From an uncultured Clostridia bacterium (GTDB lineage: Bacteria; Bacillota; Clostridia; Oscillospirales; Acutalibacteraceae), in NCBI GenBank assembly GCA_945863885.1, contig CAMAZY010000014.1, positions 500 to 64,499 on the forward strand: DNA of 64,000 nt, given 5' to 3'. The stretch's first letter is position 1; each line of letters begins with the position of its first letter. The position numbers and the translations under genes were made by a program. This document shows positions 13,115 to 21,918 of the stretch, piece after piece. The notes below the pieces were generated by a model. The model was not told the origin of the DNA, did not search any database, and saw only the letters and a program-made list of their open reading frames with translations.

Positions 13115-14719
13115 TTATTGATTGACTTTTCTTGTGTAATCCGGAAGAAGCTTCGGGCTGACGCAGTCGCTTTCGATGCCTGCGTCGTCAAGCTCTTTCT
13201 GGAAAGCGTCAACGTGAGAAAGAGTAAGCTTTCCGACGGTCGTCTCCTTTGCAGCTTTTGCAGCGTTCTGACCGGCGTTTCTGCCGAATACGATGATGTC
13301 AAGAAGAGAGTTACCCATCAGACGGTTTCTTCCGTGGATTCCTCCGACAGCCTCACCGGCAACAAAGAGGTTTTCAACGTCCGTCATGCCGTTAGCGGCA
13401 ATCTTGAGTCCGCCGTTCTGATAATGAAGAGTCGGGTAAACAAGGATCGGTTCTTTTCTCATGTCGATGCCGTACTGAAGATACATACGAAGCATAGCGG
13501 GGATTCTCTTTTCGATTGCGCCCTCGCCGTGAATCATTTCAATCATCGGGGTATCAAGCCATACGCCGTATCCGCCGCCCGGAGTCGGAACACCCTTGCC
13601 TCTTGTCGAGCACTCACGAATAATCGAAGAAGCGGTAACGTCACGGGTCTCAAGCGGATTCATGAACGCTTCACCGTCAACGTTAACGAGAAGTGCGCCG
13701 AGAGAACGAACCTTTTCGGTAACAAGTGCGCCGAAAATCTGGGACGGATAGGCAACGCCTGTCGGATGATACTGAATCGTATCGGCGTAAAGAAGCGGTG
13801 CGCCCGCCCGGTAACCGAGAATCAGACCGTCGGCGGTTGCGCCGTAGTGGTTCGAAGTCGGGAAGCCCTGATAGTGAAGACGTCCTGCACCGCCGGTGGC
13901 GATGATGACGGTCTTGGCTTTCGCAACGTAAAGCTCGTTTGTTTCCATATTCTGAAGAACGGCGCCGGCAACCTTGCCGTTTTCGTCCTTGATCAGCTCA
14001 ATAGCCGCTGTGTAGTCCACAACGGGAATGCCGAGGTTCCATACCTCGTCACGAAGAACACGCATAATTTCTGCGCCGGAGTAGTCCTTGCAGGCGTGCA
14101 TTCTCTTTCTTGAGGTTCCGCCGCCGTGGGTGGTAACCATGGTGCCGTCCTCTTCCTTGTCGAACATAACGCCGAGGTCATTAAGCCACTTGATAGCGCC
14201 CGGAGCGTCACAGACAAGCTTCTTTAAAAGCTCGGGCTTGTTGCAGAAGTGACCGCCGCCGAGAGCGTCAACGTAGTGGATCGCCGGGGAATCGTTGGGC
14301 TTGTCAGCCGCCTGAATTCCGCCCTCCGCCATCATGGTGTTGGCGTCACCGATACGAAGCTTGGTAACGATCATGGTGTTTGCCCCTGCGTTGAACGCCT
14401 CAATCGCTGCCGAGGAGCCTGCTCCGCCGCCGCCGATGATGAGAACGTCAACGTCATATTTCGGGTTTTCGAGGTCGATATCCTTGCCGAGAACACGGCT
14501 TGTACCCTCGAGAAGATGACGAAGCTCCGACGGAACCTTTTCGCCCTTGTTGGGGCCTACATGAAGCGTCTCGAAGCCTGCGTCTTTATAGTCGGGATGG
14601 TATTCCTTAAGAAGCGCATCCTTTTCGTCGGCTGTCATCTTGCGAAGATCCATGCCGAGTCTTGCCTGTCTTGTTGCTTCAACCTTTTTAATGGAAGCGA
14701 GCATTTCTTCTGTTAACAT
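13115..14719 (-). CDS. Soluble SdhA/FrdA/NadB-family FAD flavoprotein (fumarate-reductase-like)
   Basis: Start set at ATG 14719 (MLTEEML...), with GGAGGGA 8 nt upstream. Motifs VLIIGGGGAGSSAA, QYHPTG (the HPT motif of FrdA), TEKVR (position of the catalytic Arg) and RLMGNSLLD. Has an N-terminal extension of about 85 aa before the dinucleotide fold. Confidence 0.8.
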   Translation of the reverse strand: MLTEEMLASIKKVEATRQARLGMDLRKMTADEKDALLKEYHPDYKDAGFETLHVGPNKGEKVPSELRHLLEGTSRVLGKDIDLENPKYDVDVLIIGGGGAGSSAAIEAFNAGANTMIVTKLRIGDANTMMAEGGIQAADKPNDSPAIHYVDALGGGHFCNKPELLKKLVCDAPGAIKWLNDLGVMFDKEEDGTMVTTHGGGTSRKRMHACKDYSGAEIMRVLRDEVWNLGIPVVDYTAAIELIKDENGKVAGAVLQNMETNELYVAKAKTVIIATGGAGRLHYQGFPTSNHYGATADGLILGYRAGAPLLYADTIQYHPTGVAYPSQIFGALVTEKVRSLGALLVNVDGEAFMNPLETRDVTASSIIRECSTRGKGVPTPGGGYGVWLDTPMIEMIHGEGAIEKRIPAMLRMYLQYGIDMRKEPILVYPTLHYQNGGLKIAANGMTDVENLFVAGEAVGGIHGRNRLMGNSLLDIIVFGRNAGQNAAKAAKETTVGKLTLSHVDAFQKELDDAGIESDCVSPKLLPDYTRKVNQ

Positions 14720-14733
14720 TTTACCGTCCCTCC

Positions 14734-15408
14734 TTATTTCTCGATATCTCTGTTGTTGTAAAGGTCTTTCAGCTCGTCGATGCTCTTTGCCATCACTTCG
14801 GCAACCGGAGCGTCCCATTCACCGTTCTCGATTTCGGCAACTCTCTGTTTGAGGTGCTCGGTTTCGGGGGCGATGTATTTGCCGGTAAGACGTCTTGCCA
14901 GAACGGCAACCTGAGCGTGGGTGATGCCGGCCGGGCATCTTGTTGAGCAAAGTCCGCACGCAACACAGTCAAACGAGGTGTCGGCGCACTTTTTGTATTC
15001 GCCTCTCTGGGCGTAAGCGATGTACTGCATAACCGGCAGGCTCTGCGGACAAACCTTGGTGCAGGCGTTACAGCCGATGCAGGAATAAATCTCGGGATAA
15101 AGCTCCATCATAATCTGCTCGGTGGGCTTGATCTCACGGATATCGTAGGTCGCTTTCTTGGTCGGGAAGAACGGAACGGAGGAAATGTACATACCCTCCT
15201 GAACCTGCGTCTGACAGGCAAGGCCCGTCTTCAGCTCAAATTCACCCTTGATCCGGTAAATCGTTCCGCAGGCACCGCAAAAGCCGTTACGGCAGCCGCA
15301 GCCTCTGACGTACTTGTAGCCCGCATATTCCATAGCGGTCATGATGGTAAGGCTTGCCGGTACTTCGTACTGCTTGCCCATGATATAAATATTTACTGTT
15401 TTTTCCAT
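14734..15408 (-). CDS. SdhB/FrdB-like iron-sulfur protein
   Basis: CRNGFCGAC...C (Cx4Cx2C...C, 2Fe-2S pattern) plus CIGCNACTKVCP and CVACGLCSTRCP. ATG 15408 lies 8 nt after AAGAGG. Confidence 0.78.
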   Translation of the reverse strand: MEKTVNIYIMGKQYEVPASLTIMTAMEYAGYKYVRGCGCRNGFCGACGTIYRIKGEFELKTGLACQTQVQEGMYISSVPFFPTKKATYDIREIKPTEQIMMELYPEIYSCIGCNACTKVCPQSLPVMQYIAYAQRGEYKKCADTSFDCVACGLCSTRCPAGITHAQVAVLARRLTGKYIAPETEHLKQRVAEIENGEWDAPVAEVMAKSIDELKDLYNNRDIEK

Positions 15409-15420
15409 ACTCAAAACCTC

Positions 15421-20690: not shown

Positions 20691-20731
20691 ATTAAACACT
20701 CCTTTATTCGGATATTCATTCTTTCGGGAAA

Positions 20732-21124
20732 TTATTTACCGTATTTACGGAACGCGGCGGTGATTGCCTGCTGAGGAAGCTCGGGATCAAGCTTTCCGGG
20801 TACGGCGTCGGGGGAAAGGAAGTTGGCGCCTTTCGCCCGGATTACGCAGTCTCTGACCGCTTCAATCAGCTTCGCAGGCTCCACGCTTCTCGGGCATCTT
20901 TCCACACAAGCAAAGCAGGAAAGACAGCGGAAAAGGGTCTTCGATTCGAGAAGCTCGTTGATTCTTCCCTCACAGACCATGGAAGCGAAATGATGCGGAT
21001 GAATATCCATTTCTTCGAGAGCGGGACAGGTGGCGGAGCATTTTCCGCATTTCATGCACTGACGGGGATTGAAGCCGACCATGCTGATGATCTGTTCGCT
21101 CAGTTCTTTCTGATTCATTGACAT
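20732..21124 (-). CDS. hdrC: Heterodisulfide reductase subunit C-like protein
   Basis: CMKCGKCSATCP and CLSCFACVERCP. 130 aa. Confidence 0.85.
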   Translation of the reverse strand: MSMNQKELSEQIISMVGFNPRQCMKCGKCSATCPALEEMDIHPHHFASMVCEGRINELLESKTLFRCLSCFACVERCPRSVEPAKLIEAVRDCVIRAKGANFLSPDAVPGKLDPELPQQAITAAFRKYGK

Positions 21125-21138
21125 TGATTCACACCCCT

Positions 21139-21918
21139 TTACTTTACGCCTAAGGCTTCGGCAAGAAGCTCGGTGAAGAATGTTACAGGCAGACTGCCGT
21201 CCGTGTTCTGCTTTAAGTTATAAAGGCACAAGGGACAAGCGGTGATGATTTCGTCTGCACCCTTAAGCTTCGCCGAGGCGACGACCTTACCGGCTGCCTT
21301 TTGGGCAAGAGACTTGTCGTTCATCGTCATATAACCGCCGCAGCATTCGTTTCGGAACGCATATTCGACCGGCTCGGCGCCGATGGCACGGATAAAGTCC
21401 TCCATAATCGTCGGGTTCTCCGGGTCGTCAAACTGCATTTCCTTGCTCGGGCGAAGAAGCATACAGCCGTAATAAGCGGCGATTTTTCTTCCCTTAAGCG
21501 GATTTACAACCTTTTGCTTTATCGTATCGAAGCCTATTTTATCACGGAGCATTTCAAGGTAGTGGATAACCTCGGTTTCTCCCTTGTAAGGCTCGTCAAA
21601 GCCGAGATAATTGTTCGCACGAAGCGCAATATTTTCATCGTTTTTCATGTCGTTGTTGACGAGCTTTATCACATGGTGGCACGCTGAGCAGATGGTAACA
21701 AGCGGCTGAGACTTCTGCTTGGCGCTGTTGAGCGCTCTTACAGACGAAAGCTTTGTCGCAATCTCGTCCTTAGCCATCGGGTACACTGCTCCGCAGCACT
21801 GCCAGTCGTCAAGCTCTTCGAGGGTGACGCCCAAAGCTTCGGCGGCTTTTCTTCCGTAGGAATCAAGCTCTTTCGCCTTTGTCTTTAAGGTGCATCCCGG
21901 AAAGTAACTGTAAGTCAT
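21139..21918 (-). CDS. hdrB: Heterodisulfide reductase subunit B-like protein (two CCG domains)
   Basis: MTYSYFPGC N-terminus. CCG motifs WQCCGA...CSAC and ECCGG...CPLC. Confidence 0.88.
   Translation of the reverse strand: MTYSYFPGCTLKTKAKELDSYGRKAAEALGVTLEELDDWQCCGAVYPMAKDEIATKLSSVRALNSAKQKSQPLVTICSACHHVIKLVNNDMKNDENIALRANNYLGFDEPYKGETEVIHYLEMLRDKIGFDTIKQKVVNPLKGRKIAAYYGCMLLRPSKEMQFDDPENPTIMEDFIRAIGAEPVEYAFRNECCGGYMTMNDKSLAQKAAGKVVASAKLKGADEIITACPLCLYNLKQNTDGSLPVTFFTELLAEALGVK

Follow-up and report, generated by a model that had tools for sequence, protein, structure and literature searches.

Can fumarate act as a terminal electron acceptor for Hdr-type flavin-based electron bifurcation? 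The question is raised by a gene cluster of an uncultured Clostridia bacterium of the family Acutalibacteraceae (GenBank assembly GCA_945863885.1, contig CAMAZY010000014.1, positions 500 to 64,499). The stretch of DNA analysed, 64,000 nucleotides (nt) long, is called here the window. On its minus strand the genes of an Flx-Hdr module are followed by those of a FrdAB-like pair, i.e., a FrdB-like iron-sulfur protein and a flavoprotein of the fumarate reductase type. A preliminary description, made from the sequence alone, had proposed that this cluster couples the oxidation of NADH to the simultaneous reduction of fumarate and ferredoxin, or runs the reverse confurcation. With a probability that we place at roughly 0.6, positions 21918-10309 constitute a 12-gene "succinate operon" in which NADH would drive bifurcation at HdrA to ferredoxin and, via FrdAB, to fumarate. 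The coupling of NADH, fumarate, and ferredoxin draws support from domains, residues, tree, synteny, and the fumarase and transporter of the operon itself, while the reverse confurcation is disfavoured; the computational checks made of the proposal all came out in its favour. It is well supported that the operon is a further case of a system already described, although biochemically uncharacterised, and the hypothesis is already present in the literature. The contribution made here is corroboration by residues, phylogeny, synteny, and distribution, not discovery.

The nine-gene core and its flavoprotein

All nine co-directional genes reported earlier were found as minus-strand open reading frames (ORFs) between 21918 and 13115, packed tightly with an intergenic spacing of -13 to +32 nt (Table 1). 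The proposed extent of the cluster held only in part: the nine genes do reach 13115, but the unit does not end there, as the transporter and fumAB genes continue it to 10309. Domains were assigned by Pfam and NCBIfam scans, and structural relatives by a sequence search of the PDB. Each domain named earlier for the nine products was confirmed by Pfam and NCBIfam. Among the families expected, CCG, FlpD/MvhD, Fer4, and FAD_binding_2 were recovered, while Succ_DH_flav_C was not, the flavoprotein having no such domain by Pfam.

The seven subunit types of FlxABCD-HdrABC are all present with their cofactor motifs, as judged from Pfam, NCBIfam, and PDB homologues. The HdrB-like protein keeps all ten Cys of both non-cubane [4Fe-4S] motifs, and its CCG motifs align with those of the methanogen HdrB 8rvv_B (118 bits); in NCBIfam its best match is the SdhE/MFR "anchor" model with 153 bits, the HdrB model reaching 139 bits, both under the cut-off. 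In HdrA, the HdrA2 model match spans positions 1-641, both ferredoxin-like domains included, and the match to the solved HdrA 5odc_A runs end to end (683 bits). Among solved structures, the FlxC-like protein comes closest to FdhB of the Hdr-Fdh complexes (7bkb_E, 93 bits). The FlxB-like protein matches sulfhydrogenase beta models in NCBIfam and 9nez_B in the PDB (133 bits), and the FlxA-like protein matches HydG/AsrB-type models in NCBIfam.

The FrdB-like subunit carries one 2Fe-2S motif and two CxxCxxCxxxCP motifs, and no CCG domain was detected in it by Pfam or NCBIfam. Its N-terminus matches TfrB at positions 18-90 only, and the match to E. coli FrdB 1kf6_B is weak. In protein P0122 (727 amino acids (aa), from an NCBI-derived 7.7-kb contig) a FrdB-like protein and the flavoprotein are naturally fused through the N-terminal extension, a Rosetta-stone argument that FrdB and FrdA pair tightly.

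The enzyme class of the flavoprotein is evident from residue conservation, from its fold, and from its gene context. Its best NCBIfam match is TfrA (NF004900), with 350.7 bits against a cut-off of 718 and over model positions 5-423 of 546, followed by the NadB (TIGR00551) and SdhA/FrdA models at about 274 bits, the NadB cut-off being 452.75; it reaches no NCBIfam family cut-off, the SdhA and FrdA models all remaining below theirs. The best PDB match by sequence is the Mycobacterium smegmatis Sdh1 subunit SdhA, 7d6v_A (209 bits). The motifs quoted earlier for this protein are present in the sequence, and residue equivalences were read from pairwise HMMER alignments to solved SdhA, FrdA, and NadB, from a family alignment, and from a column table. 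By these alignments, QYHPTG supplies the equivalents of E. coli FrdA H232 and T234, TEKVR those of T244, E245, and R248, ETRD that of the proton donor R287, PTLHYQNGG that of H355, and NRLMGNSL that of R390. Every dicarboxylate-binding and catalytic equivalent is retained in the flavoprotein, and these residues are conserved family-wide with the exception of the R390 equivalent, which is nearly invariant, a Thr taking its place in the close homologue P0035. The position of the covalent-FAD (flavin adenine dinucleotide) His, equivalent to His44, is occupied by an Asn that is invariant across the family. Within the superfamily, non-covalent FAD accompanies fumarate reduction and not succinate oxidation.

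The AlphaFold2 model of the flavoprotein is of high confidence (predicted local distance difference test 91, predicted template modelling score 0.90), and the structure that it matches best is 1kf6_A, E. coli FrdA, with a template modelling score of 0.70 over 449 columns. The N-terminal extension of about 85 aa, described earlier as unexplained, is indeed present, conserved in homologues, and structured: the confident model shows a pair of helices, then two short strands and one more helix, and HPDY and GPNKGEKVP are motifs conserved within it. That it is no artefact is seen from the homologues of at least 78% identity, whose lengths are 531-543 aa. The extension coincides with the loss of the usual C-terminal Sdh/Frd domain and may be an interface element. 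The length of 534 aa given earlier is reproduced with the ATG at 14719, which follows AGGAGGG and is most likely the start; the mechanical ORF, of 567 aa, begins farther upstream and overlaps frdB.

The phylogeny was a neighbour-joining tree of 31 sequences (numpy distances, 200 bootstraps) with anchors assigned by NCBIfam, AprA and E. coli FrdA not being among them. The flavoprotein family and its relatives of about 400 aa form one clade (bootstrap 100), which is sister to a TfrA/Sdh1-like clade (bootstrap 66) and from which the NadB anchors are split (bootstrap 100). The family thus has a clade of its own, adjoining the TfrA/Sdh1 type and away from NadB; a true TfrA, P0210, is 39-41% identical to the flavoprotein. 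A grouping with L-aspartate oxidase or AprA together with the loss of the binding residues had been named as grounds for abandoning the proposal, and the tree placement and the retained residues point the other way. Two specific identities were rejected. As an L-aspartate oxidase the flavoprotein scores 274 bits against the 452.75 required, is separated from NadB at bootstrap 100, and has no Glu in either alignment at the position of E. coli NadB Glu121. This column is ambiguous, because the MAFFT alignment is shifted by one position from the HMMER pairwise alignment, and it reads His or Gly depending on the alignment, Glu in neither. As for AprA, no AprA model occurs in the 25 best NCBIfam matches, and the partner is a 2Fe-2S, SdhB/TfrB-like protein; no sulfate-reduction genes lie near the operon.

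Two groups of relatives deserve a separate mention. P0161, P0162, P0163, P0170, and P0182 (about 400-413 aa) form a short sister group that keeps the catalytic residues and has neither the N-terminal extension nor the C-terminal tail. The long multi-domain relatives P0185, P0197, and P0217 are FMN_bind flavocytochrome-type proteins or an SdhA-SdhB fusion, and none of them shows a fusion with CCG or Hdr domains.

Gene order and genomic context of related loci

Homologues were sought in one genome per species, with flavoprotein relatives confirmed by tblastn, and at least 597 matching stretches were obtained, the 80 best of which were compared as loci. Nearly all of these 80 are metagenome-assembled genomes (MAGs) of gut or rumen Clostridia, plus Christensenella tenuis. 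Wherever at least 7.4 kb of upstream sequence was available, the nine genes occur in the identical colinear order (57 of 57 loci), so that the arrangement is not due to chance, and the survey of gene order across Clostridia that the preliminary description had suggested returns an invariant order.

The flanks were counted in the 38 loci in which both were available. A fumarase on the same strand is found in all but one (37/38), either as a class II fumC directly upstream of hdrB (26/38) or as a class I fumAB downstream (11/38), which is a non-orthologous recruitment of one activity. An Ldh/Mdh-family dehydrogenase lies upstream in 32 of the 38, an AspT-type transporter follows frdA in 25, and a small membrane protein of 107 aa is present in eight. 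Two non-homologous fumarases, a likely malate dehydrogenase, and an exporter are strong context evidence that the terminal reaction is the conversion of fumarate to succinate, and the same context indicates that the operon encodes a reductive branch from oxaloacetate or malate. In the window, the fumarate hydratase alpha subunit scores 400 bits with NF004885 (cut-off 276), the TtdA model staying well under its cut-off, and the beta subunit scores 269.5 bits with NF005310 (cut-off 238); the pair passes the fumarate hydratase and hydro-lyase cut-offs of NCBIfam and is far under those for tartrate dehydratase. The transporter passes an NCBIfam duplication-domain model, all equivalog models being below cut-off, and may serve to export or exchange C4-dicarboxylates such as succinate. 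The window lacks the upstream dehydrogenase and fumC and has a class I fumarase downstream instead, so that the set of accessory genes is modular.

This context also bears on the substrate. The flavoprotein might act not on fumarate but as an L-aspartate oxidase-like enzyme or as a reductase of another unsaturated acid served by Hdr/Flx, considering that it remains under every NCBIfam equivalog cut-off, that NadB has the same catalytic residues, and that the neighbouring transporter belongs to the aspartate:alanine exchanger family. Such a substrate is nonetheless very unlikely: the NadB model scores 274 bits against 351 for TfrA, the tree separates the protein from NadB at bootstrap 100, Glu is absent from the NadB Glu121 position in either alignment, no residue needed to bind the two carboxylates of a C4-dicarboxylate is missing, and two unrelated classes of fumarase, together with an Ldh/Mdh-family dehydrogenase, have been recruited to the operon.

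Several loci show variations of their own. Most relatives have an Ldh/Mdh-family gene and a class II fumC 5' of hdrB (e.g., L016 1477-2853 and L076 553-1503). Where the AspT-type transporter is absent, a small hydrophobic protein of about 83-107 aa follows frdA (L042 11618-11941 and seven other loci), and it may be a candidate succinate exporter. The locus of the cultured Christensenella tenuis (L001) has the nine-gene core, although hdrC and hdrA lie about 600 nt apart (3412-4003); no fumarase or AspT gene was detectable in its flanks, and it is probably the sole fumarase-less case among the 38. The full nine-gene cluster, with about 73-74% flavoprotein identity, also occurs in a bin labelled Bacteroides uniformis (L080) and in a Synergistaceae MAG (L054), both assigned outside the Clostridia, which reflects either mis-binning or horizontal transfer. 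At L081 10001-12357 (contig CACFMC010000001.1), a divergent flavoprotein of 40-47% identity lies beside a FrdB-like gene with no Hdr/Flx genes nearby. It has the same N-terminal extension and an Asn at the covalent-His site, and falls into one cluster (identity of at least 90%) with a Prochlorococcus sp. MIT 1201 protein; a similarly divergent homologue, P0127, comes from marine Gammaproteobacteria. The FrdAB-like pair of L081 has no anchor and belongs to marine bacteria of an aerobic or phototrophic kind. Since such distant, extension-bearing pairs occur without Hdr/Flx, the FrdAB module can stand alone.

The closest published system is the "succinate operon" of Pseudoclostridium (Clostridium) thermosuccinogenes, described by genomics and transcriptomics (Koendjbiharie et al., 2020; PMC7282089). 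It has seven genes for Flx-Hdr and two for a fumarate reductase, in addition to a fumarate hydratase and a small hypothetical protein, and its fumarate reductase is assumed there, citing Ramos et al., to be tied to ferredoxin reduction through Flx-Hdr. In this proven succinate producer the operon is very highly expressed and co-regulated, with values of fragments per kilobase per million (FPKM) in the thousands and all genes moving about four-fold together according to the supplementary data; the top-expressed gene of the operon is CDQ83_RS03315 (FPKM about 5170) (Koendjbiharie et al., 2020), which is comparable to the small hydrophobic protein after frdA in the related loci. Judged on the gene coordinates of CDQ83_RS03320-RS03360 in supplementary file 1 of that paper, the two operons are colinear (hdrB-hdrC-hdrA-mvhD-flxC-flxB-flxA-frdB-frdA) and of nearly the same dimensions: 784 nt in P. 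thermosuccinogenes and 780 nt in the window for hdrB, 5348 and 5279 nt for the five-gene block, 676 and 681 nt for frdB, and 1603 and 1605 nt for frdA. Both have a fumarase within the operon and the same proposed function. They differ in their accessory genes: in P. thermosuccinogenes the core is preceded by a class II fumC and followed by an 83-aa hypothetical protein, whereas in the window it is followed by an AspT-family transporter and the two subunits of a class I fumarase. The published architecture carries, therefore, the same proposed function and not a different one (Koendjbiharie et al., 2020).

As to novelty, the earlier remark that no bifurcating fumarate reductase was known to have been characterised agrees with the literature searched, in which none was found; the idea itself is already published (Koendjbiharie et al., 2020). 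No paper in the literature searched, subscription journals being mostly outside it, uses the phrase "bifurcating fumarate reductase". A preprint of 2019 by Koendjbiharie and van Kranenburg is said to have proposed a bifurcating fumarate reductase for the P. thermosuccinogenes operon. A preprint of 2024 points to an "unusual" STRING link of HdrA to Sdh/Frd in Ruminococcus champanellensis.

Proposed electron flow and comparison with known systems

In the proposed route, malate would first be converted to fumarate by the fumarate hydratase, an enzyme assigned by family membership. Fumarate, the presumable substrate, would then be reduced to succinate at the non-covalent FAD of the FrdA-like flavoprotein, which electrons would reach via the three Fe-S clusters of the FrdB-like subunit. 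By homology, these electrons would come from NAD(P)H oxidised at FlxA, with FlxB, FlxC, and MvhD/FlxD relaying them to the HdrA FAD. HdrA would split the pairs: one electron would be driven uphill to ferredoxin, while its partner would run downhill by way of HdrC and the two non-cubane clusters of HdrB to FrdB/FrdA. In sum, the proposed reaction reads 2 NADH + fumarate + Fd(ox) -> 2 NAD+ + succinate + Fd(red), and the AspT-family transporter may export the succinate or swap it for a C4 substrate. The standard potentials are -320 mV for NAD+/NADH, about +33 mV for fumarate/succinate, and about -420 to -500 mV for ferredoxin. With these textbook values the overall bifurcating reaction is clearly exergonic and its reverse unfavourable.

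The same considerations decide on the direction of the reaction. Succinate and reduced ferredoxin could jointly reduce NAD+, as in syntrophic propionate/succinate oxidation, and flavin-based bifurcating enzymes are in principle reversible. Nevertheless, this confurcation would be uphill, given that +33 mV and about -450 mV average to a value well above -320 mV; the covalent-FAD His, needed for efficient succinate oxidation by Sdh, is Asn family-wide; the context of a reductive branch (mdh-family gene, fumarase, and exporter) belongs to sugar-fermenting gut and rumen Clostridia; and the homologous published operon is that of a succinate producer. This second option of the preliminary description is disfavoured by the Asn and the standard potentials, and its probability is almost negligible.

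A different objection is that the system may be a soluble NAD(P)H:fumarate oxidoreductase that does not bifurcate, in which Hdr/Flx would be an electron conduit and ferredoxin would stay unreduced. There is no proof of bifurcation in the sequence, and the transfer from NADH to fumarate alone is, from established potentials, strongly exergonic. However, a seven-subunit module with a full-length HdrA is hardly expected where single-subunit soluble fumarate reductases suffice, and the retention of all seven genes in the 57 loci argues for a need for them. Furthermore, the inhibition by H2 of succinate formation in P. thermosuccinogenes has been read as ferredoxin coupling (Koendjbiharie et al., 2020). 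A simple conduit is, on these grounds, unlikely. Electron bifurcation and the physical association of the proteins are what we infer from the whole of the data; genuine bifurcation by the complex, with fumarate accepting the high-potential electrons, has even odds in our judgement.

The manner in which the electrons leave HdrB is a further point of debate. Methanogen TfrAB reoxidises the thiols CoM-SH and CoB-SH (CoM and CoB being coenzymes M and B) with fumarate. By analogy, Flx-HdrABC could use NADH to reduce a diffusible disulfide carrier, either a DsrC-like protein or a disulfide of low molecular weight, along with ferredoxin, and the FrdAB-like pair could reoxidise the resulting thiol with fumarate. 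HdrB keeps both CCG motifs, which form the disulfide-reducing site in methanogen Hdr, TfrA is the nearest named family to the flavoprotein, and the electrons of Flx-Hdr are taken to "ferredoxin (and thiols)" in the published scheme (Koendjbiharie et al., 2020). Against this shuttle, the FrdB-like subunit is devoid of the thiol-oxidising CCG domains of TfrB, which leaves FrdAB without a thiol site that can be recognised; a conserved DsrC-like carrier gene of at least 80 aa was not seen in the flanks of the 80 related loci; and a single complex accords better with the strict nine-gene colinearity, the closeness of the genes, and the FrdB-FrdA fusion. The shuttle is consequently quite unlikely. 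A direct Fe-S wire from HdrBC to FrdB appears preferable to a diffusible thiol carrier because of the missing CCG domains in FrdB and the missing carrier gene, and also because the HdrB-like protein matches SdhE, of the anchor-less type of Sdh/MFR, as well as it matches HdrB (153 vs 139 bits). The most extended form of the bifurcating reading is that the nine proteins make up one cytoplasmic complex, with HdrB as a pure relay to FrdB, and that this complex is a major, hitherto unrecognised, quinone-independent route to succinate and reduced ferredoxin in hundreds of gut and rumen Clostridia species; for this the balance is evenly poised.

It is important to note that several points weigh against the bifurcating fumarate reductase. 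Co-transcription and physical association are deduced from gene packing and synteny. To our knowledge, not all HdrA homologues have been proven to bifurcate. The donor could be NADPH, given that sulfhydrogenase relatives of FlxA and FlxB use it, and a thiol carrier encoded elsewhere in the genome is possible, as the non-cubane clusters of HdrB are specialised for disulfide chemistry. The catalytic residues alone are no proof of fumarate as the substrate, because NadB keeps them too. The organism is only presumed to lack menaquinone and a canonical frdABCD; within the 64 kb, no menaquinone, Rnf, or hydrogenase genes were found in the rest of the window. Lastly, no assay, co-purification, or structure for any homologous complex was found in the searched literature, subscription journals being mostly outside it, and a sequence search yielded no Flx-Hdr or related Frd complex among solved structures.

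The system combines features of several better known ones. FlxABCD-HdrABC of Desulfovibrio vulgaris has the same seven protein types, with NADH as the proposed donor and ferredoxin as the proposed acceptor, as far as that work is presented in a later paper (Ramos et al., 2015, via PMC7282089). Compared with what is given there, the window has the genes in reversed order (hdrBCA-flxDCBA) and no adh or DsrC context. In the window the proposed high-potential acceptor is fumarate rather than the DsrC disulfide, because the Hdr/Flx genes share an operon with a fumarate reductase. We know of no direct in vitro demonstration of NADH-to-ferredoxin bifurcation by the D. vulgaris complex.

Methanogen TfrAB is likewise soluble and anchor-less, has no flavinylated His, and contains the nearest named flavoprotein family; in both systems the Fe-S subunit has a 2Fe-2S and ferredoxin-type clusters, and a CCG protein takes part. 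Unlike TfrA, the window flavoprotein lacks the C-terminal region and gains the N-terminal extension. The CCG domains are fused to the Fe-S subunit in TfrB, whereas in the window they reside on a separate HdrB within HdrABC/Flx, and the thiol substrates of TfrAB, CoM and CoB, are archaeal. The type E or anchor-less Sdh/Frd enzymes (SdhABE/MFR of Campylobacterota, the Sulfolobus type, and actinobacterial Sdh1) share the combination of a flavoprotein, an Fe-S subunit, and a two-CCG subunit. In contrast to the window proteins, which score far under the cut-offs of the SdhABE/MFR and Sdh1 families, these enzymes are quinone-linked, possess the covalent-FAD His and Succ_DH_flav_C, and have no HdrA, MvhD, or Flx partners. 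Complex II differs in its membrane anchor, Succ_DH_flav_C, and flavinylated His, all absent from the window, although the catalytic and dicarboxylate residues of E. coli FrdA are kept. In agreement with the claim of an anchor-less FrdAB, no FrdC/D- or SdhC/D-like gene was found in the operon or elsewhere in the window.

For HdrA, HdrB, HdrC, and MvhD, clear homologues exist in the methanogen MvhAGD-HdrABC and Fdh-Hdr complexes (5odc, 7bkb, 8rvu), and FlxC resembles the FdhB that feeds HdrA in Fdh-Hdr. The donor unit in the window is of the NAD(P)H type (FNR/HydGB-like) and not a hydrogenase or formate dehydrogenase, and the proposed acceptor is fumarate via FrdAB and not the heterodisulfide CoM-S-S-CoB.

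Operon signals, neighbouring genes, and biological meaning

The genes and signals of the operon are collected in Table 1.

Table 1. Genes and candidate signals of the operon in the window (positions as in the 64,000-nt stretch).
Feature	Position	Strand	Basis
HdrB-like, two CCG domains	21139..21918	-	Pfam CCG x2
HdrC-like 2x[4Fe-4S] subunit, 130 aa	20732..21124	-	Fer4 dicluster families; NCBIfam HdrC models best
HdrA, candidate bifurcating FAD/Fe-S subunit	18702..20699	-	HdrA2 model, 806 bits
MvhD/FlxD [2Fe-2S] connector	18265..18711	-	Pfam FlpD 185 bits, full length
FlxC-like Fe-S subunit	17291..18277	-	Pfam Fer4_8 and related families
FlxB-like Fe-S subunit, AsrA/HydB type	16263..17288	-	Fer4_22, 106 bits
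FlxA-like NAD(P)H-binding flavoprotein with [2Fe-2S]	15421..16266	-	FAD_binding_6, NAD_binding_1, and DHODB_Fe-S_bind
FrdB-like iron-sulfur subunit, 226 aa	14734..15414	-	Fer2_4 and 2x Fer4
Soluble fumarate-reductase-type flavoprotein, 534 aa	13115..14719	-	FAD_binding_2 at residues 91-472
AspT/YidE/YbjL-family (Asp-Al_Ex) transporter	11748..13007	-	Pfam Asp-Al_Ex x2, 196 bits
Class I (Fe-S) fumarate hydratase alpha	10874..11719	-	Pfam Fumerase 391 bits
Class I fumarate hydratase beta	10309..10872	-	Pfam Fumerase_C 199 bits
Promoter-like site TTGTCA-17-TAAAAT, about 80 nt 5' of hdrB	21999..22027	-	Consensus scan
Perfect 8-bp hairpin AGCCGTAG-GGAACA-CTACGGCT, without T-run	13079..13100	-	Direct sequence reading
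G+C-rich 12-bp hairpin followed by TTTTC (minus strand)	10265..10294		Terminator scan and direct reading

The promoter-like site upstream of hdrB has 10 of 12 consensus matches and is a pattern match alone. The ATG of hdrB has a weak ribosome-binding site, and a strong AAAGGAGGG lies about 50 nt 5' of it (window 21915-21990, minus strand). A possible leader ORF of 15 codons starts there from a TTG (AGGAGGG at about 21975), and its TGA overlaps the hdrB ATG (ATGA), an overlap that could allow translational coupling. This leader is not conserved in 55 related upstream regions, which mostly have fumC or an ordinary ribosome-binding site, and for this reason it is kept as a passing observation. 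The 107-nt gap between the flavoprotein and transporter genes contains the 8-bp hairpin, which is not a canonical intrinsic terminator; it may act in attenuation or in the processing or stability of the mRNA, and so adjust how much enzyme is made relative to transporter and fumarase. The G+C-rich hairpin likely ends the 12-gene unit. It is common to the operon and to a convergent RelB antitoxin/ParE toxin pair (9622-10262, plus strand). Upstream, an isochorismatase-family gene starts at 22350 on the plus strand and is divergent from the operon. The relB/parE pair is unrelated to it. Elsewhere in the window, a 955-aa ORF without any Pfam match (57590-60457, minus strand) lies directly 5' of the gene of a 917-aa fused ABC-ATPase/FtsX-permease protein (54836-57589, minus strand).

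If the bifurcating reading is true, fumarate joins the short list of terminal acceptors for Hdr-type flavin-based electron bifurcation. A fermenter without quinones would store part of the large free energy of the NADH-to-fumarate transfer as reduced ferredoxin for Rnf or hydrogenase, which would explain how quinone-free Firmicutes conserve energy in the reductive branch to succinate. The operon is also a clean test case for electron transfer from HdrBC to an Fe-S enzyme without a thiol substrate. Its strict conservation in hundreds of gut and rumen Clostridia, among them MAGs of Christensenellaceae, Oscillospiraceae, Lachnospiraceae, and Acutalibacteraceae, beyond the one thermophile in which it was described, bears on the fluxes of succinate and H2 in the intestine.

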